A DNA stretch of 64,000 bases from Wickerhamiella versatilis (Eukaryota), in NCBI GenBank assembly GCA_030867685.1, contig JAQOWU010000007.1, forward strand, positions 2,542,001-2,606,000, written 5' to 3'. The notes under the pieces were generated by a model. That model saw only the letters and a program-made list of their open reading frames with translations. It was not told where the DNA came from and did no database searches. The translations under genes and the position numbers were made by a program. Shown in pieces: positions 1,160 through 62,119 of the stretch (the stretch's first letter is position 1; each line of letters opens with the position of its first letter).

Positions 1160-2749
1160 ATGCCTCCTATTGCAGCCAGAACTGGCAGCAGGAGGCGTCG
1201 ACACTATGCTTGCGAACGCTGTCGTTCACAAAAATTGAGATGTTATTTTGCTACAAGAACTTCAGTAGCTTGCGCCCGTTGCATTCAGTGTAATGTTGAG
1301 TGCACTGGGCGAGGTAGCTTCGATCAAATTCAGCTACCACAAGGACAAAATCCGGGAGGGTCATCTCTGTTAAACAACTTGCTAGTATTGCGCACGCAGC
1401 TAACCAACTTAGGTGATACTCCGCTTAGAAGAGCAATAGCGGTTGGTGCCTATACTTGGGATGAGGTCGAAGAAATGTATACATTTTTTAGAACATCAAA
1501 TATGTCACTGCTATCGGATATGGGCGATTGGGGATCCATAGTAGAAATAGATACAAAATCCCCTCAGTTTGCTATTGCGATCGTGAGCGTAGTGGCTATG
1601 TCGATATCTTTGCCTGAAGTGCAGAAGCAGCATAGCCGTGAGTTCTTCCTCGGCGAAATCTGGGAGCATGTGCGCTCCGAGAACTCTTGGGACACATTTT
1701 GTGCTCTTGCGGTAATCTGTGGTTACAGATTGCCCTATGCAGAGCTTGGTATTTCGCACTTATATACCCTTAATGGTATTATGGCGGCTCTAAGTGCAAG
1801 ACTAACAGACGCACAGGTTGATCTTATGAGAAAAACATGCATTTCTGTCACGATACCTTATGCATTTCTTGATTCTTTTGTTCCTATTGCCGGACTAATT
1901 CCAGTTGAACACCCCTCGCCTGACAATGACAGTGTTGCATCACAGGTGCTACAAGCATATTATGACTTTAGGAAGTGTGTCAGAGATATAAATGAGGCAC
2001 ATAGCCCATCTGATGCAATAGAAAAATATGAAAAGTCAATGACAATAATTTTCACGTCATTGGCTTATAATTACGAAATTGGTGCCCTTCGCTTTCTCTT
2101 TTTCCTGGTGAAACTCAAGCTAATGAAATCAGTTGCCGTTAAAGTTGCAACTTCCTCCCAGCATAACAAGTTAGAGAGACAAAACCTACGATTTCTCGAA
2201 AGAGTTGTCGCAGAATCAAATGTTTTGGGGCACCAAATAGCTCGCATTTTCGGCAGGCATGCCTCTCACTCCTCTATTTTCCCAACATTCACATTGTTTC
2301 TTATTGAGGACTGTTTAGTTAACTTTCTTGCTATGCGGTTTGTTTCTTTTGCCGCTAAAATTGATGTTGATGTACGAACAGATGACTTCCTTAAGAAGAT
2401 CGAATCTATATGGTCAGACCTCTCTCAGCGAAGTTCTACAGCTCGCCAATGTTTTGTATCATTTGTAAATGTCAGGATTTTGTCTGGTCTCAAAATAGGG
2501 ATCCTTGACCGGTCTACTGGAATAGTTGGTGGATCAGGAATAATGCCATACTTTGAGATATACATCGAGTCCCCTGAATCTCGTTCATTGGAGCTTGCTG
2601 GACGGTTTACGAGCTTAGAAGCCCACGAGATTTTATGTTCTGTTATTTCTGTACCGGAAAATGAAATACCTCCCATCAATGATAGTTCGTGCTTCACAGA
2701 CAAGGGACGGTCTGTTTTGCGGGAAATATTACGAGTTTACACGATATAG
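1160..2749 (+). CDS. Zn(II)2Cys6 transcription factor
   Basis: N-terminal ACERCRSQKLRC...CARCIQCNVEC binuclear cluster in a 529-aa ORF. Confidence 0.9.
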   Translation: MPPIAARTGSRRRRHYACERCRSQKLRCYFATRTSVACARCIQCNVECTGRGSFDQIQLPQGQNPGGSSLLNNLLVLRTQLTNLGDTPLRRAIAVGAYTWDEVEEMYTFFRTSNMSLLSDMGDWGSIVEIDTKSPQFAIAIVSVVAMSISLPEVQKQHSREFFLGEIWEHVRSENSWDTFCALAVICGYRLPYAELGISHLYTLNGIMAALSARLTDAQVDLMRKTCISVTIPYAFLDSFVPIAGLIPVEHPSPDNDSVASQVLQAYYDFRKCVRDINEAHSPSDAIEKYEKSMTIIFTSLAYNYEIGALRFLFFLVKLKLMKSVAVKVATSSQHNKLERQNLRFLERVVAESNVLGHQIARIFGRHASHSSIFPTFTLFLIEDCLVNFLAMRFVSFAAKIDVDVRTDDFLKKIESIWSDLSQRSSTARQCFVSFVNVRILSGLKIGILDRSTGIVGGSGIMPYFEIYIESPESRSLELAGRFTSLEAHEILCSVISVPENEIPPINDSSCFTDKGRSVLREILRVYTI

Positions 2750-3671
2750 TTGGAAAACATGATCACATACCTACTGATAGAGGTTGAACACCCAATTCTA
2801 GAACTGTATACTAAACAATCTTGCATTGAAATATTTTTCCCTGGACGTTCTTGTTGGTGGCAGGAGCAGCAAGCTATGCTAGTGGCCTGACTATGGTCTA
2901 CAACCTGGATGGGATTATTATGGTAAGTTTGGAGTGCATGCTCTGAATAAATTAGGTAATTTGGTATGGAACTATCATCGGCTGTACATAGAATTGGGAC
3001 CAGGAATGAAGCATGAATAATTCGTTCTGGATAGATAAATAAGTCACGAAATGTCCTGAATCGACTTCCCCATGATGATACAGACAGCAAGAGTAATCTA
3101 CATCATGGAGCAAGGGACCTGAAGTTAGCTCGAAAAGTGATGCAATTTGGAGTACAGTTTGAAGTGCCGATTCAGAAAAGAGAAGGGATTTCCATATATG
3201 TAGACGAAAACAGCCAGACCACTATATTTATCTGATCTCTTTTGGGCATTAAGTCAGAGACCACAACGCCATCTTATTGATAGTCATATATAGATTTAGC
3301 AATCAAAAATATCACAGAAACAAAGCGTCTTTTTTCTCTTTTCTCTTAGAAGCGTTTATAATTTTAGTCACAGCCCAAACCCAACCCACATAATATTACC
3401 AAGCGCACAAGTACGTTATGTTTTACATAGCTCGATTACGCAATGATACTTTGTATAACATCGTACTCTTACTATATCACATTACTACAACGTCATCTAT
3501 CCTTTACCTGCAACAATCACCCCTGGTGTAAGTATTTAATGACATGATGTCAACTTAGCGATGTTGCAATAAGCAGCTATTCTGGACAGGCTTCCAAAAA
3601 AAACCCCGCTCATTCTTGCAAGATATTAGTCCTAGGTAGATATTATATGATGCTATAGCACACTGGTACCT

Positions 3672-3719
3672 GCCCACTTCACTACCTGAGACTGGTTGGG
3701 CACTGCAAGATAGCCCACT
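3672..3719 (+). repeat. 41-bp dispersed repeat, full copy with upstream tandem junction
   Basis: gcccacttcactacctgagactggttgggcactgcaagatagcccact. Confidence 0.95.
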
Positions 3720-4097
3720 GTCAGAATGGAAAGACTAATAAAAACGAAAAGCAATTCATAATTATTGTAAACGTTTGAAGATAGTGGGCTGGGCCAATTC
3801 CCTGAAATCGCTAGAAAGTTTAATGTTGTATGTCGTTATCATAATATTACCTCGTAAATCATATGTATGAAAAACACCTGGGAAAACACATTCGTATAAA
3901 ATTCTCTATTGACTAGTTTTGCGATTTGAACGGTGTTTGTTAGAACTGGTTTATCTTACTTTTTCCAACCAGTATTAGGTGGTAAGTATGTCACTGATAA
4001 CTGATAAATCATATACAGCTCTACTCTAGCATTAGCTAATTTTCTCTCCATGTTCATATAGTTGACAGGTGCCAGAGTAGTTTGCAGTGGTGAAGCT

Positions 4098-4430: not shown

Positions 4431-4598
4431 TGGCTTGCAAATTAGGCCACATCAGTCTACCTAGTGCAGGTAAATTGTGAGCCATACACGGCTCCTTTTT
4501 TTTCCGCGTTGTAGGGAAAGTGAACCCAAAGATTGATCAATCAAAGCTGGCTTCTCTTCTTAGTCATTGTGTGATCACCGTGACAATGCAGGGCACTG

Positions 4599-4630
4599 CA
4601 CTACCTGTGACTGGTTGGACAACGCAAGAT
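4599..4630 (+). repeat. 41-bp dispersed repeat copy
   Basis: cactacctgtgactggttggacaacgcaagat. Confidence 0.9.
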
Positions 4631-5308: not shown

Positions 5309-5333
5309 GTTGGACAATGCAAGATAGCCCACT
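5309..5333 (+). repeat. 41-bp dispersed repeat, right part
   Basis: gttggacaatgcaagatagcccact, perfect match. Confidence 0.9.
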
Positions 5334-10442: not shown

Positions 10443-10517
10443 GCAAGATAGCCACTCGTATATTGGATCGGTGATATTTGCCTCTTGTAATAGTATAATT
10501 AGCAGCCATCTGGTGTA
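10443..10517 (+). repeat. ~75-bp segment duplicated at 15061-15136, beginning with a repeat fragment
   Basis: gcaagatagc(c)cactcg...attggatcggtgat...tagtataattagcagccatctggtgta at both sites. Confidence 0.9.
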
Positions 10518-13224: not shown

Positions 13225-13246
13225 GGCTATCTTGCGTTGTCCAATC
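13225..13246 (-). repeat. 41-bp dispersed repeat, partial
   Basis: Reverse complement reads gattggacaacgcaagatagcc. Confidence 0.8.
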
Positions 13247-15052: not shown

Positions 15053-15075
15053 GCTATCTTGCAAGATAGCCCACT
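15053..15075. repeat. Head-to-head fusion of two repeat right arms (18-bp palindrome)
   Basis: gctatcttgcaagatagc followed by ccact. Confidence 0.85.
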
Positions 15076-16858: not shown

Positions 16859-16886
16859 AAGTGGGCTATCTTGCATTGTCCAACCA
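16859..16886 (-). repeat. 41-bp dispersed repeat, 28-nt perfect part
   Basis: aagtgggctatcttgcattgtccaacca. Confidence 0.9.
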
Positions 16887-17345: not shown

Positions 17346-17559
17346 CCACTCCATGATGAGCATCCTGGCCAGATTCGAGCTCACATATGATCAGTGCTTA
17401 TACCGATGTCATTTTGTTGGTTACCAAGCTGACCAAGCCTTGCAGGTCGGTCATATAAGCGGAGTATCATATAATACACAGATTTGTGTGGGTCGCAAAT
17501 CACGCTAATAGCAGATAATGGGTGGGTTGCCTTTGAATAAAGTTGCAATTGTTACTGGT
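17346..17559 (+). pseudogene. Diverged duplicate of 5329-5563: SDR upstream region plus first 14 codons
   Basis: Colinear similarity to 5329-5563; ATG 17518 MGGLPLNKVAIVTG then runs straight into the repeat. Confidence 0.85.
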
Positions 17560-17568
17560 TGGACAATG
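17554..17568 (+). repeat. 41-bp repeat fragment at the SDR truncation point
   Basis: actggttggacaatg. Confidence 0.8.
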
Positions 17569-20091: not shown

Positions 20092-20106
20092 CTATCTTGC
20101 ATTGTC
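20092..20106 (-). repeat. 41-bp repeat fragment
   Basis: ctatcttgcattgtc. Confidence 0.7.
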
Positions 20107-21803: not shown

Positions 21804-22131
21804 TCAAGTTCCTAATCTAAGTTACTTCAACTTTGAACAATGAGGAGTTTTTGACATGCCAAAAAGTCCTAGCTGTCCTAATTTTAGGAAAGTACTACTT
21901 CGCTGACTTAAACTATTCGAATAAGCTGTACCAGCCCACACCGGTTTTCACTTTCATCATCGAAAATGACGTGTCTCTAACAGCGTATTGAAAGATAATA
22001 CTGCAAATGGTATCCGAAGACGCAAACGGTGGTCCAGAAGGTTTGGCATCTTCAAACAGAATGACAGCTCAGAATCATAGTTCTGCAGATCCAACATCAG
22101 ATACATCCGATGGAATAGATTAGTTTAAATA

Positions 22132-22165
22132 CAAGATAGCCAAATTAACTACCTGAGACTGGTTG
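22132..22165 (+). repeat. Repeat right arm followed by left arm
   Basis: caagatagcc-aaatta-actacctgagactggttg. Confidence 0.85.
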
Positions 22166-23186: not shown

Positions 23187-23221
23187 ACAATGCAAGATAG
23201 CCCACTTCCTGAGATTGGTTG
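23187..23221 (+). repeat. Circularly permuted repeat copy
   Basis: acaatgcaagatagcccacttcctgagattggttg. Confidence 0.9.
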
Positions 23222-25921: not shown

Positions 25922-25939
25922 AATGCAAAATAGCCCACT
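25922..25939 (+). repeat. 41-bp repeat fragment
   Basis: aatgcaaaatagcccact. Confidence 0.7.
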
Positions 25940-26122: not shown

Positions 26123-26148
26123 CCTGAGACTGGTTGGACAAAACAAGA
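26123..26148 (+). repeat. 41-bp repeat, partial
   Basis: cctgagactggttggacaaaacaaga. Confidence 0.85.
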
Positions 26149-28430: not shown

Positions 28431-28448
28431 AACCTCAACCTCAGTCAT

Positions 28449-28488
28449 CACTACCTGAGACTGGTTGGACCATGCAAGATAGCCCGCT
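28449..28488 (+). repeat. 41-bp repeat, full copy, inside a ~105-bp direct repeat (28412-28520)
   Basis: cactacctgagactggttggaccatgcaagatagcccgct. Confidence 0.95.
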
Positions 28489-29450: not shown

Positions 29451-29972
29451 CAGGTACTCCAGAAAAATACAATTGGGCTATGTTGTATTGTCTACCAATT
29501 AGCTAACAATGCATACACTTTCTTACGTGATCAATTTCTTGGCAGTTCTTACGTAAAATAGTTTTTATCCTCTTCAGTGACAATTTGCAGCCATCTCGGT
29601 TACATGATCGAACAAAGCTTTGTTTCCAGTATATCTTTAGGTAGATTTCTTGCCTTTAGCGAGACATCTTACATTACGTGGGCTCTCCGACGTACGATTT
29701 CCAGTGGTGGGGTAATTCTTTATAAGCAACATAATTATTAAAGGTGATTGCATATATATGCCTTAATATTTTTCTTGTCACTTAAAAAACTCTTACTTTA
29801 TATACTGGAATGAAAATTCTACCTTTAGCATTTCGGGTGACTAGAAAAGACCATGGGCTTGATCCAACGGACTCTAGGGTAGCCTTACTAACAGTTCTAC
29901 CTTCCCCTTAACCATACGGATTAGGTGCTTGTCTTGGCAAGATGCCATTTGAGACATAAGCATTTTTTGAAT

Positions 29973-31840: not shown

Positions 31841-32103
31841 GTAACTAGTGTGACCTGCGACTCAGCGAGGTGCCAAAGGGGCCAGAGGAGCCATACCTCC
31901 TCGTCTCCGTGCTTCAGAGCTTAGAGTTAAGAGGACCTGAGCATTCCACAACTATTGTCATAGCGCCTATTCCTAAATCATAAGGCTATTAAGCTTAATT
32001 TGTAGTCACCAATAACCGTCAGCATGCGGACTCGTGAAGATCTGATCGGGGAATTGTCGTAATATTCCTGTGATCCGATTCCGGCCATATCAACCTCAGT
32101 AAT

Positions 32104-32143
32104 CACTACTGGAGACTGGTTGGACCATGCAAGATAGCCCACT
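32104..32143 (+). repeat. 41-bp repeat, full copy, inside a ~100-bp direct repeat (32074-32175)
   Basis: cactactggagactggttggaccatgcaagatagcccact. Confidence 0.95.
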
Positions 32144-33245: not shown

Positions 33246-33280
33246 ACTACCTGATAGTGGTTGGACAATGCAAGATAGCC
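33246..33280 (+). repeat. 41-bp repeat, near-full copy
   Basis: actacctgatagtggttggacaatgcaagatagcc. Confidence 0.92.
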
Positions 33281-35276: not shown

Positions 35277-35297
35277 ACAATGCAAGATACCACTTCA
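35277..35297 (+). repeat. 41-bp repeat fragment overlapping the first ATG of the orphan ORF
   Basis: acaATGcaagataccacttca. Confidence 0.7.
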
Positions 35298-37199
35298 ATT
35301 GTGATTGCAAGTATTTCTGCATGGATTAATCAATATGATCGGTCCCTTTACCTTTTGCTTTATTTGATGATGATATTTAAACACCTTTTCACTTATGATC
35401 AGGGGGAATTCGCTGATATTGACTACTTTGGAAAATGGAGATACCACGGGAAATTCTTTCGGAGTTGCCATATTGCGTTTTCCGATATGACACTTTCACA
35501 ACTTTCTTTCTGTATTTTATCTGCAATACTGGTTGTATTTGGAGACAGAATGCCACATTTTGTAGGTATGCTTCTGCTTTCTTCACTGCAATTATGTGGC
35601 TATTTGTCTACCATTCTTTTCGTGAGTTCAAATCAAGACAGCGCGCCAGCAGTTCGTGAGACACTCGAGTGCACGGCAGTAATATATGCCACATTGAACA
35701 TACTCCCTACAGAAGTGAGAGCTGGCTTGTGTTATTGGCGCCATCTTTATTTGACCCTAACTCTTGTTTCCAGCTTTCTATGGGTAGTGTCAATGATGCA
35801 AAATACATTCAACCGAAGCTACTTGGCTGATATCTTACCTTTGGGAGGGGTTTGCGCCACCTCGCTCATAATATTAGGACTCAAGGCGGTTGGGGTTCAA
35901 AGCACACTAACCGACAGATATGACATGTTGCTGAATATTTTTAACTTATTATGGATATTTATTAGTACCATTACTCTGTATTCACAACTGTTTACGGAAG
36001 CCCCTGCATCTACTGATAACAAATACCGCCCATGGTATTGGTTCGCACGCAATGATTGCCGACTTGGCTGTTATCTCGATTTTATTCCCTTTAGACCTAG
36101 AATGGCTTGGGTATATTCCATCTTATCATGCGTCACGACAATGTATACTTTCAATTTACTCAGCTCCTGGCGTGGTGAGTTTGAATCTCCAGAACAAATT
36201 ACTGGTGAATATTCGGAAAGAGGCGTTATGGAAGGACGAAGTTTGGATTATTGGCTTTATTTCATGACTGTTTTTGCATTAGTCGGATACAGTTACATTC
36301 ACGTGTACGTATATCTACCGGTGAAAAGGGCCTATAGACGGTGGCATAATCCGACCATAGATGATGTTACGTATGATAATGACACCATCGATCATGATGA
36401 TGTCAAAGATGATGGTTCCAGCGATGATGCAGTATCTGTATCAAGCGCCGACGATCCTTATTGGAAATTTTACTTTCCGGCGAGTCGATACAGAGAAAAC
36501 TTTAGCACTATATTAATATTCGGCGATTGGATTCTTCTATATTTTGCATCTATGCTAATGTCTTTTGAATGCTCTATTCCCGGTGATCTTATTGTTGTAC
36601 CACTTTTGTTACTTGAGATGACCGGGTATATTGCAACGATTTCGTTAGCTCCAGTTTTTCGCTCGTCGGATATGAGTCGCTATATATTAACACATGTGAG
36701 CATTCACAGCGCTTTTCTCAATGTGCTATCGCCGTACAGCAAGTATTGTCTTTCTCAATGGAAAAATCTTTTTTTGATTCTTTCAGAACTAACTGCAAAA
36801 GTTTTTTTCATCTTGCAATCGTATTCAATGAATAACATGTTGAACAATGCGACCTTATATTTGATGTTATGTGCTCTGATGGTGGCAGAGGGGCTTGGGG
36901 TGGTCATGGTGTTAGGGTATTTGAATAACGATAAAGTCATCGGGAAGATATTATTGAAGAAAGTAATTACTTATCTTTATGGATATGACTGCGGGTTTTT
37001 TTTTGTCTCAGTTTGTTTTGAGATTGGCCATAATATATTATCCGAACGAGACATCCCTGTATTTTTCAAGAAATTCTGTCGAATTGCGATTGGGTCTATC
37101 ATGTTTCACCTTGGGCCAATGCTCATGTATAGTCTTCTGAGTACCTGGTACCTCCAGTATGAAAATAATACTGGACAACAAAAGCAGTTTTATATATGA
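35280..37199 (+). CDS. Orphan polytopic membrane protein with internal duplication
   Basis: 639-aa ORF with many TM segments; two homologous halves separated by an acidic linker; start uncertain. Confidence 0.75.
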   Translation: MQDTTSIVIASISAWINQYDRSLYLLLYLMMIFKHLFTYDQGEFADIDYFGKWRYHGKFFRSCHIAFSDMTLSQLSFCILSAILVVFGDRMPHFVGMLLLSSLQLCGYLSTILFVSSNQDSAPAVRETLECTAVIYATLNILPTEVRAGLCYWRHLYLTLTLVSSFLWVVSMMQNTFNRSYLADILPLGGVCATSLIILGLKAVGVQSTLTDRYDMLLNIFNLLWIFISTITLYSQLFTEAPASTDNKYRPWYWFARNDCRLGCYLDFIPFRPRMAWVYSILSCVTTMYTFNLLSSWRGEFESPEQITGEYSERGVMEGRSLDYWLYFMTVFALVGYSYIHVYVYLPVKRAYRRWHNPTIDDVTYDNDTIDHDDVKDDGSSDDAVSVSSADDPYWKFYFPASRYRENFSTILIFGDWILLYFASMLMSFECSIPGDLIVVPLLLLEMTGYIATISLAPVFRSSDMSRYILTHVSIHSAFLNVLSPYSKYCLSQWKNLFLILSELTAKVFFILQSYSMNNMLNNATLYLMLCALMVAEGLGVVMVLGYLNNDKVIGKILLKKVITYLYGYDCGFFFVSVCFEIGHNILSERDIPVFFKKFCRIAIGSIMFHLGPMLMYSLLSTWYLQYENNTGQQKQFYI

Positions 37200-37694
37200 A
37201 ATATTTTCAGTATATCTCAGTGAGTTATTCTTTTAGAACACAGATGCATGCAGAAAGATCTCCCATATAAGGAATTGTCATGAGATACAAATGGTGATTT
37301 TATGGTGATGTTAGATAAGATGCACAAGTCAGCTTAAGCATATAGTCTGTTCCGAAACATAAATACCTCTTGTGCCTCTGCGCTAATTTTATTTGGTCAT
37401 GGTTAAATTTTCGGATGATAGAAACAAAAAAAATCTACTGAGGCATGTGTCAGTGGAGCGACATGCTCCATGATCAATGGTCTATTACCACAGTAGTACA
37501 AAATACTGTGTATTTTAATTTGGCAATATAAGTATGAACCATTCACTTTATGTAGCATTAATTAATTAATGGCGCTTATTGTCATAGTTACATAGATATT
37601 TCCCGCATGTACTCACGGTATTAAGAGAAATGAAGGAATCTTGATAGGATTTGGTCATTTGATTATTCAGAGGAATTATTGTGCCCATCTTAAT

Positions 37695-38525
37695 ATGCCG
37701 AAGTTGCGTGACATTTCGAGTCTTATTACAGGGTCAGTACCCGAAGAGGTGATCGATATGCTTGAAAGCTATTCGATCTATCGGATTAGTTGGCTTAATA
37801 TAGGATTTTCAGTTGTTATGGGATTGAGCTTCTATCTGTGTACATGGCTACGCTCGAAGACCATACCCCGGAGACAGGTGGTGTCTAAGGAAGGAGCAAT
37901 CGAGAAAGAAAATCAAAATGGCATGGAGAGTAATAGCGATGGTATGGATATTTTATTAAGTGCCGTGGGTGGCATATTTTCAGCTAATTCCATTATGGTG
38001 GCAATTATGCTTGGTGCTTATCATTTGGGCGTCAATAAACGGGAGTGTATTAAATTTCACCTTGATATGATGAAGTTTGTATTGAATTTTTTGCTTCTTG
38101 TTGGCTCTATTGGGGTTCTACACAAGACAAATGTTCTTAAGCCTATCGCAAACGTTATTTTTGGGCCACCATCGAAGCGGATTATTGAGGTATTGGAACA
38201 GTATAAGATGAGATATTCTCTCGCACTATGGTCAATATTTTCAGTTGCCATGGGCTGCATCTGTTGTCTGTACAGGCAAGCTAGATGTGCAACTGGGAAT
38301 ACATTGGGCAACAGCAGAGGAAATAATGATTCCAACGAGCGCGGAGGAATTAAAAATGTTTTGCTACTTTCCTTGTCCGATTTTTTTATCATTCATCCTT
38401 TCTCTTTAATTTTTTTGCTAATTTCTGACCGAAAAAGTGAACAGAGTCGGCGGGAAAGGCTTTCATTTTGCTTAACTTTAATAAAGGGTTTCTTTTTGTC
38501 TTTTCTGGTTATTAGGAGTATATAA
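37695..38525 (+). CDS. Orphan multi-TM protein
   Basis: ATG 37695 MPKLRD...; about 6 hydrophobic segments; no recognised family. Confidence 0.6.
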   Translation: MPKLRDISSLITGSVPEEVIDMLESYSIYRISWLNIGFSVVMGLSFYLCTWLRSKTIPRRQVVSKEGAIEKENQNGMESNSDGMDILLSAVGGIFSANSIMVAIMLGAYHLGVNKRECIKFHLDMMKFVLNFLLLVGSIGVLHKTNVLKPIANVIFGPPSKRIIEVLEQYKMRYSLALWSIFSVAMGCICCLYRQARCATGNTLGNSRGNNDSNERGGIKNVLLLSLSDFFIIHPFSLIFLLISDRKSEQSRRERLSFCLTLIKGFFLSFLVIRSI

Positions 38526-38583
38526 TATGCCCCTGCATCTTAATATTAATTAGGGTGTAAATAAGAGTTTGAATGCTTACTTA

Positions 38584-38609
38584 ACTACCTGAGACTGGTT
38601 GGAAAATGC
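38584..38609 (+). repeat. 41-bp repeat, left part
   Basis: actacctgagactggttggaaaatgc. Confidence 0.9.
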
Positions 38610-38621
38610 TAGTTTCCTGTC

Positions 38622-39517
38622 TTATTCAATAGAGTGTTCAGAATTCTCTGACTGTAAGGTTTTTGAAACCTGTTCTTGAGAACTTTCTGTAGAGTCTGGG
38701 GGAGATAAATCAAGTTCATCTCCGATAATTCCAATAATCACCATCATATAGCAGAGAGTACCAAAGAGTCCACAAATGAAGATAAAAGTGCCATCAAATT
38801 GAGCAAAAGACCACGTATTGAGCAGTGCTAGTAACAATGAACTTACAGAAAGAATGATTTCGAACCACTTACTCACAGAATAGAGAGATAAACCAAAAGA
38901 GATTGCAGACGTAGAAATGAATGTTTGCAATGGACGCAAGGCGCGAAATAAGGAGCTAGGTACCAAGGAAACAGGTAAAACAAGCCAGATTGTGAGGAAT
39001 GATGCGACGTTTGTAATTATTATTGTTCTTTGACGGGAATTCAATGCAATCAGTAGGACAGCAAGCAAAAAGAAAAAGACTGCGATTGACCCAACTAGAA
39101 TAAATAAGCCAATAATAATGAAAAAAGGTTCACAATTTGAATTTCTCCACTCCCAGCAGCTGCTGTATTCATGACAAGTGTATACCCCCATTATTAGCAT
39201 TGCTTTTATCTACCAAGTGTGCAACAATTAAGACCAGTATAATACATACCCATGCAAGCAGTGCATGCTGAACTGCAAAATACGACCTTAGTGACCACTT
39301 ATGGTTCAAAAAGAGGTATTAATGCGGAAAGCAGCAATAAAAGTCTTGATTTGATAGGAAGATGGGTGCTCTCAGGAATAGCTGTAGACATGATGGCAGG
39401 CAGGGTAAACACCGCTGCCACTAGGAAATCTAGTTCAGCAAGAGAATTCTCATTTGGATTATGGTGTTTTTGAGTATTGCTCAGCTCTTTATCAGCTGCT
39501 TTTCTCCCCTCGTTCAT
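38622..39517 (-). pseudogene. Disrupted paralog of the 41728-42546 membrane protein
   Basis: Split ORFs 39299-39517 and 38622-39200. LRPLQTFIST vs LRSLQVIIPT; FICGLFGTLCY vs FVSGLAGTLAY. Confidence 0.7.
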
Positions 39518-39566: not shown

Positions 39567-39617
39567 CTACCTGAGACCAGTCCGAGATTGGTTGGGCAAT
39601 GCAAGATAACCCACTTC
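39567..39617 (+). repeat. 41-bp repeat with internal stutter
   Basis: ctacctgagaccagt-ccgagattggttgggcaatgcaagataacccacttc. Confidence 0.9.
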
Positions 39618-41426: not shown

Positions 41427-41449
41427 GTCAGTGTAAGTATATTTGTCTC

Positions 41450-41493
41450 TTCACTACATGGGATCGGTTGGACAATGCAAGATAGCCCACTAC
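41450..41493 (+). repeat. 41-bp repeat, full copy
   Basis: ttcactacatgggatcggttggacaatgcaagatagcccactac. Confidence 0.92.
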
Positions 41494-41727
41494 TATCTTG
41501 AAATAGAGTGATAGGTTTCCTTATGTCTAAGCCCAGGAAGAATTAGCGCATATCTCTTTTCATATATTCTGCGGATGGAACATACGGTACTAAATTTGTT
41601 CCTGTCTTATATTTATTGGGGAATAGCCTTAGACCAAGCAAAGCTCTTATGTCAAAACCTCTTGGAAATGTTTCACAGCTAAGAACCATATATATGCTTA
41701 TGAAGAAAAAGATGCTACTATTTTCAA

Positions 41728-42546
41728 TTAAGGCTTACTGTCATGTTCCTGGATGGGAATCAGTAGCAGATAAGCAAGGGTTCCCGCAAGTCCTGAAACG
41801 AAAAACTCGCCCTTGTTAGTATAAATACCAGACCAAAGGCTAAGAGGGCCTTGTACCACAAAAACTACTGCAAATATTTTTGAAGTCCATTTCTGCATAT
41901 TCGCTGGCAATGAGGTGGAAATAGATAATAAGATGGTGGGGATTATAACTTGCAGTGAACGAAGCGACAGAAAGAAAGGAAAAAGTGGAGCAAACACCGA
42001 GTCCGGAATAAAAACAGGTAAAATAGAGAAAGCCCCTAAGATGAAAAAAATAAAGGGAAATGACGTATTCTTGTACTTTCCGGCGTTATATTCATTCACG
42101 AAAATCAATATTCCGATAAATGTTATGACAACCAGGCTTAAACCACCACCAAAGAGGGCAAACAAGGGAATATCACCCCAAGGATTCGGAGAAAAACTAC
42201 ATATATTACCAGTACAATGCTTTCCGCGCTTGGAATAGTCTTCACGAATGATAAATGAAATTCTAAGAATGACCGCGTTACACATCCATATGGTTGCTGC
42301 TCTATAAGTAGCGCGGTAACCATATGGATTATAAAGGCATTTTACCATGAATGGCAAGGCCGCTACTAACAGAGGCAGCCATTTAAAGGTAATAGTGGTT
42401 CGCGCCACTTGAGGAATTAAAGCAGAGGTGAGACTCGCAATAGTCAGAGCGAATATTCTCATAGGTTGAAAGTCAACAAGCGTATCTGAGTGTGAAGTAT
42501 TGTCCTTTTCTCGGTGCAGCTTGATTTTTTCAGAAGTGGTACTCAT
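41728..42546 (-). CDS. Orphan multi-TM protein
   Basis: ATG 42546 MSTTSEK...; many hydrophobic segments; paralog at 38622-39517. Confidence 0.7.
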   Translation of the reverse strand: MSTTSEKIKLHREKDNTSHSDTLVDFQPMRIFALTIASLTSALIPQVARTTITFKWLPLLVAALPFMVKCLYNPYGYRATYRAATIWMCNAVILRISFIIREDYSKRGKHCTGNICSFSPNPWGDIPLFALFGGGLSLVVITFIGILIFVNEYNAGKYKNTSFPFIFFILGAFSILPVFIPDSVFAPLFPFFLSLRSLQVIIPTILLSISTSLPANMQKWTSKIFAVVFVVQGPLSLWSGIYTNKGEFFVSGLAGTLAYLLLIPIQEHDSKP

Positions 42547-42795: not shown

Positions 42796-42832
42796 ACCTG
42801 AGACTGGTTGGACAATGCAAGATAGCCCACTT
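42796..42832 (+). repeat. 41-bp repeat, 37-nt perfect copy
   Basis: acctgagactggttggacaatgcaagatagcccactt; further fragments at 42586-42600 and 43040-43064. Confidence 0.95.
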
Positions 42833-43262
42833 AGTTTATATAGGCGTAAAGTAAGCTACGAGATAGCGTTATATTATCCCTTAACATGCAGTTTGCAATT
42901 CCAAAGTGACCCTATATGAGTTTACTGGTTGATGTCATGATTCGAAATCCATAAATACCGGTGTTTATTCCTTATTGACATTGTGCATTGGCAAAGACGA
43001 AAAGTGCTAAAACTTTTTGTCTCATAAGGCTTAGGCCTTGATTGGTTGGACAAGGCAAGATAGCTTAAACCCGTGAATTAATCTATCCCATAAAGAAGTA
43101 TAGTCATATCAAAAGTGGTGAGAGACAAATCTAAATCGTCCTCGTCCATTGACCAGTTCAATATACTGAGGTAGCTTCATAGCATCAGACAAAGTACATT
43201 CACTCACGTCTCATCACTATGAATTCTGTTTAAAATTCTTAGTGAGTCATCTAAATGGGTTG

Positions 43263-46179: not shown

Positions 46180-46200
46180 TGGACTATCTTGCATTGTCCA
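46180..46200 (-). repeat. 41-bp repeat, partial
   Basis: tggactatcttgcattgtcca. Confidence 0.8.
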
Positions 46201-50429: not shown

Positions 50430-50492
50430 CTGGTTGGACAATGCAAGATAGCCCACATCACTACCTGAGACTGATCGGGTGATGCAAGATAG
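50430..50492 (+). repeat. Tandem ~1.5-mer of the 41-bp repeat
   Basis: ctggttggacaatgcaagatagcccacat-cactacctgagactgatcgggtgatgcaagatag. Confidence 0.95.
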
Positions 50493-51924: not shown

Positions 51925-51956
51925 ACCCGAGACTGGTTGGACAATGCAAGAATAGC
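51925..51956 (+). repeat. 41-bp repeat copy
   Basis: acccgagactggttggacaatgcaagaatagc. Confidence 0.9.
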
Positions 51957-52162: not shown

Positions 52163-52196
52163 GCTACCTTGCATTGTCCAACCAGTCTCAGGTAGT
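52163..52196 (-). repeat. 41-bp repeat, near-full copy
   Basis: gctaccttgcattgtccaaccagtctcaggtagt. Confidence 0.95.
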
Positions 52197-55245: not shown

Positions 55246-55274
55246 CTGGTTGGACAATGCAAGATAGCCCACTT
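55246..55274 (+). repeat. 41-bp repeat, 29-nt perfect part
   Basis: ctggttggacaatgcaagatagcccactt. Confidence 0.92.
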
Positions 55275-59214: not shown

Positions 59215-59240
59215 GTTGGGCAATGCATGATAGCCCACTA
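59215..59240 (+). repeat. 41-bp repeat, partial
   Basis: gttgggcaatgcatgatagcccacta. Confidence 0.85.
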
Positions 59241-59680
59241 TATAACAGGATTTGTCTCGACTTATCTTTGCATTCATAGATCATTTCAGATTAAATATGC
59301 ACACTTGCACTGGTGTATAAGCCATTGCCGTAATACAACGGTTTCGAAAGCAATGTTAAGCCTTCTTCACCTAGAAACATATACAGGTATGTTGACATCG
59401 ATTCACGAATAAGTAATTTTAATTGTTGGATGAAAAAAAGCAAAACATTCGTCCATTATGGATTATATATAAGTCTTTTAGGTGGATTTGGTGTTCCTTC
59501 ATATAAGGCTAATATGATAATTTAAGATGGTAGTAGGAAACATAGGATGCCATTTGACTACGTAATGACAAATAAAGTGAAGAAGGTTCCAGTGCCTAAT
59601 GGTATTCAATATAATAGTGAAGTCCAACTACATGTTTCCCATACAACAGAGGTTCCTACACTAAGAAGTAACGAAGAATA

Positions 59681-59699
59681 CAAGATAGCCCACTTCACT
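59681..59699 (+). repeat. Repeat fragment spanning the tandem junction
   Basis: caagatagcccacttcact; another fragment at 61623-61638. Confidence 0.8.
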
Positions 59700-62119
59700 T
59701 GGTTAATTGTAATCAAGACATATGACGCATACCGCGAGGCGGTGCTATAGTCACCTCAGGCTATTAAAATTGACATCAATATAACGATACTTTAAGTATG
59801 GATTGATTTACGCCACAGTTGTGAGTTACATGTGCATATACTGGCTTTTCCTACGGAAGGAGGTCGTGATATAGATCAAGGAATCTAAATTTAACACGAA
59901 GGGTGGAAGAATTCATTCAACGCTTGATATCTACTCAAATTGAGCGAGGAAGATGGCATCAATGCTGTCGTATCAAAGGGAACACTAGGGCCAGTGCACC
60001 AACATTATTGATACGTAGACACTCGCCTCAGTAGTTGGGCCGTCTAAATTTTTAAGGTATGACTCAGTCCTAACGTGTGACCAAGCCATCCGTGTTACTC
60101 ATCCGAGCACAACCTCACATAAATGTATAGATCCAACATCGGCAAAAGATAATTGAAACCAGAGCGGCCTTAATGTGATTAAATTTGACAGGAATGCAGC
60201 ATATAGATCCAGAAACCCCATTAAACAAAGCACGCATATCTTATTATGATTTACCCCCTTTCCTCATTACTTATTCATATATAAAAGGAACTTAATGAAG
60301 CGATATCGCTCACTTTCTTGGTTACACTGAAGGTATATCACGATAGCTATCTCACTCCTCAGCATCAGATTAGATCCGAACAAAAGTTTAGATATTCCCC
60401 TCATACTTTCTATACTGTACATTTCTGCGACGGTCTGCGACAGCCAGAGTTCAACCGCATAAATAATCATAACCGTCCATTTTCGTATGATATACAGACA
60501 ATAATAACAGTGATCTTAAAACTTCCTGCAACATCAGAGCTAGTTTGCAGCTCTAGATCGGGCATTAGTCATGGATATTTGTATGACCTAGGGTTTAGAA
60601 ACGCCCACCAAAAAAACCCGCATTAGGGCACTAAGACAAGCCTGGAGAATAAAACTGCACCTGACCATCTTAAAAGAGGCTCTAAAGACCACGATTGCGG
60701 GACGCTTATCCTGATTTCTCTTAGATTTTGACTTGCTACAATGTGTCGAGCAGAGAAGTTTATGCAAGATACCATTTGTAAATGCCTCAAATGCCTCATT
60801 GTCTTGTCCATCTCACCCATCCCATCATTAATGAGCTAGGTTAATAGAGGACATGATCGCCGGATTAAGCTCAATGTAACGTTAGTGCTTAGTGCTTTTC
60901 AATGTCCAAAAGCATAGTTTTTTATGGTACAGGTCAAGCTTACGCTGCCCTTTGATACACCTTAGGACATCTCGGGGAAACGAAGTGAAACGTCTAAAAA
61001 AGAAATGCAAAATTATCCAAGGTTTTCTAGGCATCTAGAAGCCACAAATCTCAGCAGTGCGTCCGCATCAAGGCCACAATCTCAAATCTACTGGGAAACT
61101 CCAATATGCACACCAAGAAACGACTAAAAGACTACTTTACGGTGGTTTTGTGAAAATTCAACATTACTTACAGCATAACTTGTCAGTTTTTGCCCATGTT
61201 CGTGTGGATGTGCCAACAGTAATATAACCCTACTCCATATGCAGGGATTTTCTAACTCCTTTGTCAGTAGGTGCACACCGATGAAATAGATATTGTTGTC
61301 GACAAGATTTTGACTTAGGGCGTGATGATAATACGGTGACAATACCTTTCCTAGTCAGTGAGTATCCTGTATAAAGGATAAGCAGCTTGATAACCGGTAC
61401 TCTACGTGTCATGGGCCCATCATATGGTGGCGTCCAAGTTGTGGATATTACATCAAACAAAAAGATCTATGCAATTAATCGCATGGTATTCAGGTAGAAC
61501 TAACGGTTTTCATGGTCTACTTCGTAACCATGGCAATACGGATTTCCATTTTATTCCTAAACGACTTGAAAAGACTCTGGTTCAGGCATTTTTTGACACT
61601 TTTCGCAAGGAGCTCAAGAAGAGCAAAATAGCCCACTTTAGGATATTTTCAAGTTAAGGGTTTTGAGTGCGCCATACATAACAGGAAAATAGGACTTGCC
61701 GTAATGAATAAGAAGACTGATGAGACGAGCCCGCCCATCCCACATAAAGATTTATTTTTGATTTGTTCATTTTTGTTATTTCCACCAAACCACTTACAGG
61801 CTGTAAGTAGAGGATGCCATTTGGGCGATGCAGCAAAATGTATATATAGTCAGTTTATACAGGGTACGGGGTTGCGCCCTTGCTGATTTTGCATATGTAG
61901 CCAGATGCTAAAGATCTCCTTCTGAGTATAGTAGATTGTACTTATAGACTATGTGTTAGGCGTAAAAAAATTTTTTGTGCGTTGAGCTGAAACTTCTGGA
62001 CACAGCAACTCTTATGGTAACGGAATATCTTAATTCGTTCAACATACAGCCTGCAGCTTACTTAAATACCAAAAAGAGTTTATAAAAAGCGGGAATTCTC
62101 AGCTAGGTAATATCGGAAT

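Follow-up and report, generated by a model that had tools for sequence, protein, structure and literature searches.

A probable 41-nt telomeric repeat of Wickerhamiella versatilis and its short copies dispersed through chromosome-end regions

The window, a 64,000-nt stretch of the Wickerhamiella versatilis genome (C7:2542001-2606000), lies on the 2.64-Mb contig C7, with 33.6 kb between its last base and the right end of that contig. An intergenic segment within it, at 50430-50492, is flanked on one side by a broken glycosyltransferase-like gene, present in two overlapping frames just upstream (window:49528-50270, plus strand), and on the other by a rhodanese gene. This segment matches a circular 41-nt unit from unit position 40 to position 20 of the lap after next, and five of its six mismatches fall within the final 20 nt. 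In total, 32 segments of the window match the unit at a score of at least 13 (25 on the plus strand and 7 on the minus strand), as compared to 0, 1 and 0 segments in three shuffles of the window, and Tandem Repeats Finder returned no period-41 array in it. The positions of these segments are collected in Table 1. Among the genes of the window is one (window:55921-59148, minus strand) whose 1075-aa product combines adenylation, carrier and reductase domains in a carboxylic-acid-reductase layout; the two halves of this protein may differ in origin. Also represented is a family of ORFs for membrane proteins of no evident class; it is repeated in the end regions, and its copies share 68% DNA identity.

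The original prediction, made from the letters of the window alone, described the repeat as circularly permuted and joined end to start at 3672, 50451 and 59688. The junction at 3672 is complete, the one spanned by 50430-50492 carries one mismatch at 50451-50465, and the one at 59688 breaks after ~4-5 nt and does not stand as a full junction. Of the two shortened junctions that had been described, 23201 is as stated, with five letters missing between two CACT words, while 41487 fits a fold-back better: the eight letters after the copy are the reverse complement of part of that same copy. The stutter reported at 39567 is partial, with part of the unit repeated. Short fold-back inverted repeats edge some copies (window:41470-41500; L036:4751-4765 on C8), which suggests template switching during repair. 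The same C8 stretch encodes a glycogen phosphorylase (L036:1425-4151) whose best named matches are from Scheffersomyces/Candida (63-65%) and not from Wickerhamiella, a possible yeast-to-yeast transfer judging by similarity. Elsewhere in the window, the downstream flank of 59215-59239 is common to C7:2636558 and to the DNA distal to the C8 array, and each of these is preceded by a different length of repeat.

Table 1. Matches to the 41-nt unit in the window, tandem arrays of the unit, and members of a membrane-protein ORF family. Positions without a prefix are window positions.
Feature	Position	Strand	Remarks
Near-complete single template pass, 48 nt	3672..3719	+	positions 20 to 26, 2 mismatches
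Degenerate copy, 29 nt	3952..3980	-	
Copy, 37 nt	4594..4630	+	positions 23 to 18
Exact copy, 25 nt	5309..5333	+	end at position 26; second copy of downstream flank at 17351
Copy, 20 nt	13225..13244	-	
Exact copy, 16 nt	15060..15075	+	end at 26; downstream flank duplicated at 10457
Exact copy, 28 nt	16859..16886	-	end at 27
Exact copy, 15 nt	17554..17568	+	
Exact copy, 15 nt	20092..20106	-	
Junction-crossing copy, 38 nt	22128..22165	+	4 mismatches
Copy with shortened junction	23187..23221	+	junction 5 nt short
Copy, 18 nt	25922..25939	+	end at 26
Copy, 26 nt	26123..26148	+	upstream-flank paralogue without repeat, 3 letters in register
Copy, 38 nt	28448..28485	+	within 87-nt duplication shared with 32090
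Degenerate copy, 19 nt	29474..29492	-	
Copy, 41 nt	32103..32143	+	positions 27 to 26
Copy, 35 nt	33246..33280	+	upstream paralogue without repeat
Exact piece, 13 nt	35277..35289	+	weak
Copy, 31 nt	38579..38609	+	
Stuttered copy	39567..39617	+	partial unit repeated, then 34 nt to position 28
Copy, 43 nt	41449..41500	+	end at 26, then 8-nt fold-back
Exact copy, 37 nt	42796..42832	+	end at 27
Copy, 22 nt	43043..43064	+	
Copy, 21 nt	46180..46200	-	
Match to circular 41-nt unit, 63 nt	50430..50492	+	1.5 units, 6 mismatches
Copy, 27 nt	51925..51951	+	
Copy, 34 nt	52163..52196	-	upstream of nitrate reductase
Exact copy, 29 nt	55246..55274	+	end at 27
Copy, 25 nt	59215..59239	+	end at 26
Copy, 23 nt	59677..59699	+	crosses junction by ~4-5 nt; upstream paralogue without repeat, 2 letters in register
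Copy, 16 nt	61623..61638	+	end at 27; weak
Tandem array, 5.5 units	C1 right end		runs to last base
Tandem array, 11.4 units	C4 right end		runs to last base
Tandem array, 3.4 units	C7 left, 1760-1899		1.8 kb from contig start
Tandem array, 12 units	C8 left, 3142-3635		3.1 kb from contig start
Membrane-protein ORF family	35280-39200		
Membrane-protein ORF family	41728-42546		
Membrane-protein ORF family	L024:3227-5998		C7 right end

The genome amounts to 9.88 Mb in eight contigs, one of which (C2, 19% GC) is probably mitochondrial. Overlaps between contig ends join C4-C3-C1 and C8-C5, from which we infer three chromosomes. Contig C6 (L016:1-2172) consists entirely of Thr/Ser-rich tandem-repeat coding sequence resembling an adhesin fragment. 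Read toward the chromosome end, the 41-nt unit at the right end of C4 (L005:1501-1541) is GGTTGGACAATGCAAGATAGCCCACTTCACTACCTGAGACT. A genome-wide pattern search found tandem copies of it at four places only (Table 1), with none inside chromosomes. The four arrays contain zero substitutions and, in total, four 1-nt deletions and one 4-nt insertion, and the outward-reading strand is identical in all four. This strand has 9 G and 11 C in 41 nt and no TTAGGG-like word, whereas a G-rich outward strand is usual, although not universal in this clade.

The C4 and C1 arrays form the two ends of one inferred chromosome, and two of the six inferred chromosome ends, the right ends of C7 and of C8/C5, are without an array in the assembly. 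Beyond the C7 array lies 1.76 kb that repeats interior sequence as a noisy fold-back (63% identical) and looks like the product of a noisy read. The 3.1 kb beyond the C8 array (L018:91-3189) matches the right end of C7 (L024:2900-6000) at 99.9% identity; this results either from a misjoin or from a recent exchange through the repeat, in which a former telomere recombined with the C7:2636508 copy. Arrays start abruptly in genes and at differing unit positions: a short-chain dehydrogenase-like frame (L005:1321-1500; Pfam E 1.5e-4, below cut-off) gives way to the C4 array after 60 codons, and the final third of an amine oxidase gene (L018:3638-4159) directly adjoins the C8 array. Both of these look like new telomeres on broken ends, as if recently healed. 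Head-to-tail joints of the unit were also found in 286 raw reads of run X24 and in one contig of run X14; because X24, an RNA run, is unstranded and has intergenic background, its 286 reads cannot separate telomeric transcripts from DNA carry-over and were not counted as evidence of expression.

The telomerase reverse transcriptase (TERT) is encoded by a single intact frame of 766 aa, with RNA-binding (PF12009) and reverse-transcriptase (PF00078) domains above cut-off and catalytic Asp motifs visible in the sequence, and it has a 73%-identical relative. The gene adjoining TERT finds its best named match in Wickerhamiella sorbophila (42%), followed by Blastobotrys, and the first of these places the host in the clade of Wickerhamiella and Starmerella (W/S clade). 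At C8:2.92 Mb lies the gene for a 467-aa protein that contains two Myb domains and has TRF1 and TRF2 as its best PDB matches; it is likely Tay1, a name assigned by way of the accessible part of PMC12449055. A search for Rap1 detected none of the controls.

Since the arrays are terminal, outward-reading and substitution-free, with none internal, and since this yeast of the W/S clade carries an intact TERT, the 41-nt unit is very probably its telomeric repeat. The original prediction had proposed as much and had suggested inspecting contig ends, at or near which the arrays proved to be. The outcome that it named as refuting, a different repeat at the ends with no tandem array of the unit anywhere, did not occur; its range of 36-41 nt for the unit narrows to 41 nt, as all four arrays have this period and no 36-nt array was seen. 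A centromeric satellite was considered for the 41-nt repeat and rejected. As separate observations, the C3/C1 join (L022:586-6000, L011:1-3700) consists of several kb of diverged, AT-rich tandem repeats (36-37% GC) and is a possible centromere, and exact interior copies of the unit on C7 (G000:C7:848249-2404298) are predominantly minus-strand as far as 2.38 Mb and predominantly plus-strand from 2.40 Mb onward, a switch that may mark a centromere.

Published telomere tracts of W. versatilis measure 410, 121, 329, 410 and 206 nt (PMC13376923, in the accessible part). Four of these five lengths can be written as 41n or 41n+1, no other unit between 6 and 60 nt fits as well, and two other species in the same table fit their known 30- and 20-nt units likewise; the published lengths thus support the 41-nt unit independently, if indirectly. 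Neither the motif nor dispersed copies are printed in the main text and most supplements of that paper, whose figure PDF may hold the motif, and a full-text literature search with pieces of the 41-nt motif gave no match. Known long units in Saccharomycotina include those of C. albicans (23 nt), K. lactis (25 nt), Tetrapisispora (25-29 nt) and W. domercqiae (30 nt) (PMC7857110 and PMC8211666, both in part). The 41-mer is absent from the Saccharomycotina motif rows in parts 1-2 of the three-part table of PMC7857110. The same rows list a putative 43-nt motif for Pichia norvegensis, with the next longest at 33-34 nt, so that the expectation of a unit longer than any known does not hold and 41 nt ranks second among them.

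The original prediction also called for a telomerase RNA locus with just over one unit as its template. No such gene holding more than one unit was found in the assembly by two exhaustive half-unit searches combined with BLAST, in which 40 of 78 BLAST candidates were scored. Three perfect non-array matches of at least 42 nt were recovered, at C8:309256, C7:2636508 and C7:2634272. The first, a perfect 50-nt match in a 1.35-kb spacer, was rejected as the telomerase RNA: it is absent from a contig of run X20, and RNA depth in its flanks is ~5-40 in run X24, as compared to ~400 in neighbouring genes. The two C7 matches are unlikely candidates, as they lie in subtelomeric spacers of 1.0 and 0.5 kb and one is at the edge of a duplication. 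A gene-free spacer at L073:2345-3226 (C7:1.224 Mb) was rejected as well, because no more than 9 nt of it match the repeat and Rfam gave no hit, which indicates that no template lies inside; a stretch near L073 position 2862 presumably resembles the 5' end of U1 snRNA. Repeat-bearing reads are abundant in run X24. Three flanks of such reads had no true match in G000 (among them were one match at control level and one chance match inside a coding region), and a fourth had no match in the loci examined; the three flanks may come from a telomerase RNA gene in unassembled DNA or from strain-specific insertions.

Copies of the unit outside the arrays were surveyed in 383,957 bases near chromosome ends, leaving out the arrays, the noisy stretch and the contig overlaps; this yielded 135 segments at a score of at least 16, from a sample in which two stretches had first been chosen because they held matches. 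The copies range from 16 to 63 nt, and unit positions 9-26 are the best covered. Their starts fall in 39 of the 41 phases. By contrast, 48 of the 135 end at unit position 26 or 27 (p ~1e-28), and almost none end at positions 28-12; the many phases at which copies were originally said to begin and end are therefore a property of the starts and not of the ends. Indeed, 113 copies fit one linear 50-nt template running from position 18 to position 26, compared to a mean of 70 and a maximum of 91 in 3000 trials with randomised starts. The other 22, including 50430-50492, do not fit one pass and cross the inferred template end, which for 50430-50492 means that two rounds or two events are needed. 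The original contention was that copies stem from a tandem array or a reiteratively copied template and not from a fixed-ended element. Its second half stands, in that a MITE or SINE with fixed ends was rejected for want of fixed termini and of a fold, the unit folding worse than all 200 of its shuffles; as to its first half, most copies look like single passes along a linear template with a fixed end.

Most copies face outward (105 of 135); C4 shows this bias weakly (13 of 23), and copies at 100-350 kb show none (4 of 11). A single copy lies inside an ORF of at least 150 aa although such ORFs cover 55% of the sequence; the remaining 134 are outside. Counting 56 exact 18-mer matches outside the arrays, with four dropped as overlap duplicates or noise, the density is 58 per Mb at less than 100 kb from an end, 7.3 at 100-350 kb and 1.3 beyond 350 kb, and near the ends copies reach one per 2-3 kb and separate most genes from their neighbours. 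The same perfect 50-mer, with identical ends, occurs in two unrelated loci, and some dispersed copies are common to more than one run.

We examined the sequences that adjoin the copies. The site at C8:309256, 309 kb from the contig start, is empty in one contig of the related run X20, where 53 nt are absent. A 7-nt word flanks the filled allele on both sides and is present once in the empty allele, and its last three letters are in register with the start of the repeat; with one contig to go by, this difference may also represent a deletion between the 7-nt repeats rather than an insertion. In 30 of 135 cases a copy sits at one boundary of a duplicated segment, compared to 60 of 1200 intergenic control points, although reciprocal pairs are counted twice among the 30 and the independent number is somewhat lower. 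The same paralogue was found on both sides of 0 copies, versus 57 controls. Of the 15 paralogues that share the upstream flank, 10 are without the repeat and five have it, whereas of the 15 that share the downstream flank, 13 include the repeat end and have another neighbour upstream. At seven of the ten repeat-free upstream paralogue junctions, two to four letters are in register with the repeat (p ~5e-6); among the upstream junctions two are unclear and one needs a 1-nt shift, and at one a paralogue with three in-register letters was taken over another with none.

From the terminal arrays, the intact TERT, the anchored ends of the copies, the empty site and the position at duplication edges, all of which were directly observed, we propose that telomerase adds one template pass at breaks and that the patch is then either joined on or recombines with another copy, a model that we consider probable as a whole. 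The 41-nt unit would be made by telomerase from an RNA template of ~50 nt, comprising one unit plus ~9 nt of redundancy and ending at unit position 26; in the accessible part of PMC8211666, telomerase RNA templates exceed the unit by 1-10 nt. At a break, telomerase would pair two to four terminal bases with the template, as the junctions suggest, and copy to the template end, usually once. The short patch would fail to become a telomere and be rejoined to the other broken end; alternatively, it would pair with one of the dispersed copies already present, and whatever DNA follows that copy would be copied or joined on. Through such joining or copying, the copies would mark, and probably promote, gene-by-gene rearrangement of chromosome-end regions. 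Copies within genes would be removed by selection and the remainder would decay by point mutation.

The copies might instead be remnants or captured fragments of existing telomeres, with eroded ends mended through end-joining or recombination and no telomerase action at the internal site. Their outward facing, subterminal enrichment and links to duplications match the relics of Pyricularia oryzae (PMC8381367, in part), and both the 22 copies that cross the inferred template end and the 12-unit C8 array with 3.1 kb of C7-like sequence beyond it would fit. Random fragments should, however, end anywhere, which is at odds with the concentration of ends at 26/27 and their near absence at 28-12, and the empty site has the form of a clean, template-length insert with a short duplication, far from the contig start. 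The fragment reading could be rescued if native ends all stopped at 26, but that invokes the same template boundary, and we regard it as unlikely. We judge it somewhat less likely again that the arrays, though terminal, are maintained independently of telomerase, whether through recombination, by rolling circle or by a different reverse transcriptase that carries its own RNA, and that this route would also make the patches. The template locus was not found in the assembly, the strand is not G-rich, and telomerase-negative yeasts with long terminal motifs do exist (PMC13234504, in part); on the other hand, an intact, conserved TERT is present, the arrays set in abruptly within genes and at different unit positions, and one homogeneous unit is present at all ends, whereas the motifs of the telomerase-negative Microstromatales are mostly end-specific in the accessible part of the same source.

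Selection for binding sites of a telomere protein, with the copies kept as silencer or promoter elements, would account for the 134 copies outside long ORFs, for the better coverage of positions 9-26 and for copies common to different runs, and a Tay1-like protein is encoded. Lengths of 16 to 63 nt with free starts, an orientation that follows the chromosome end, a site that is empty in a related run and the position of copies at duplication edges all argue against it, and selection against insertions in genes also explains the intergenic position; we hold this very improbable as the origin of the copies, while the best model leaves room for regulation as a secondary role. Least credible of all, to the point of being nearly negligible, is the reading of the copies as a fixed-ended short mobile element or recombinase site, or as an artefact of assembly. 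One 7-nt duplication and the noisy read sequence at the left end of C7 speak for it, and it is contradicted by the terminal arrays, by starts in 39 of 41 phases, by a unit that folds worse than its shuffles and by head-to-tail joints in the X24 raw reads and the X14 contig.

The proposal that telomerase patches breaks can be set beside known systems. Like other long Saccharomycotina repeats, as far as the sources cited above are accessible, the unit is long and homogeneous, forms short terminal arrays, is accompanied by TERT and has an inferred redundancy within 1-10 nt; unlike them, its outward strand has more C than G, and its template RNA was not found in the assembly. The W/S-clade motifs listed in the accessible part of PMC7857110 are weakly G-rich. 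Short interstitial telomeric sequences of primates and rodents were inserted in register at double-strand breaks (Nergadze et al., PMC2246262, in part), and the copies described here resemble them in an empty orthologous site, in-register break bases and an occasional target-site duplication. They differ in that the long unit makes each insert readable as a single pass with a fixed end, in a density of up to one per 2-3 kb, and in that many copies join two different segments. Telomere/MoTeR relics of Pyricularia oryzae are likewise subterminal, outward and at segmental duplications, and include long internal arrays that border subtelomeric repeats (PMC8381367, in part), whereas the copies here are mostly shorter than one unit and far denser; unlike the case with MoTeR, no telomeric retrotransposon was seen among the ORFs of the window. 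Telomerase-negative Microstromatales share long non-canonical terminal motifs in a yeast (PMC13234504, in part) and differ from the present case, where TERT is intact and one motif is found at all ends. The 41-nt repeat extends the known long and complex telomeric repeats of budding yeasts, and the new aspect is the dense, single-pass, junction-marking internal copies.

A homogeneous 41-nt unit implies a template of ~50 nt, longer than the confirmed yeast templates compared in the accessible sources, on a strand that is not G-rich, and this bears on the limit to what TERT can copy and on what telomere proteins need to recognise. Chromosome "end domains" in the W/S clade, to which the host belongs by best named match, are rich in horizontally acquired genes (PMC13376923, in part). 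A more far-reaching and doubtful idea is that telomerase serves this lineage as its routine enzyme of break repair and DNA joining, placing the same 20-50-nt patch on any free end, including foreign DNA, with the patch acting as a universal homology tag that stitches single, putatively foreign genes into chromosome-end regions. If true, this would explain how the clade gathers and shuffles many horizontally acquired genes with few transposons. The long unit lets telomerase priming and stopping be read base by base, which six-base repeats cannot show. With more than 100 such records in a small genome of a culturable yeast, the action of telomerase at internal breaks becomes directly testable, and the same records make its part in subtelomere shuffling and gene uptake testable as well.
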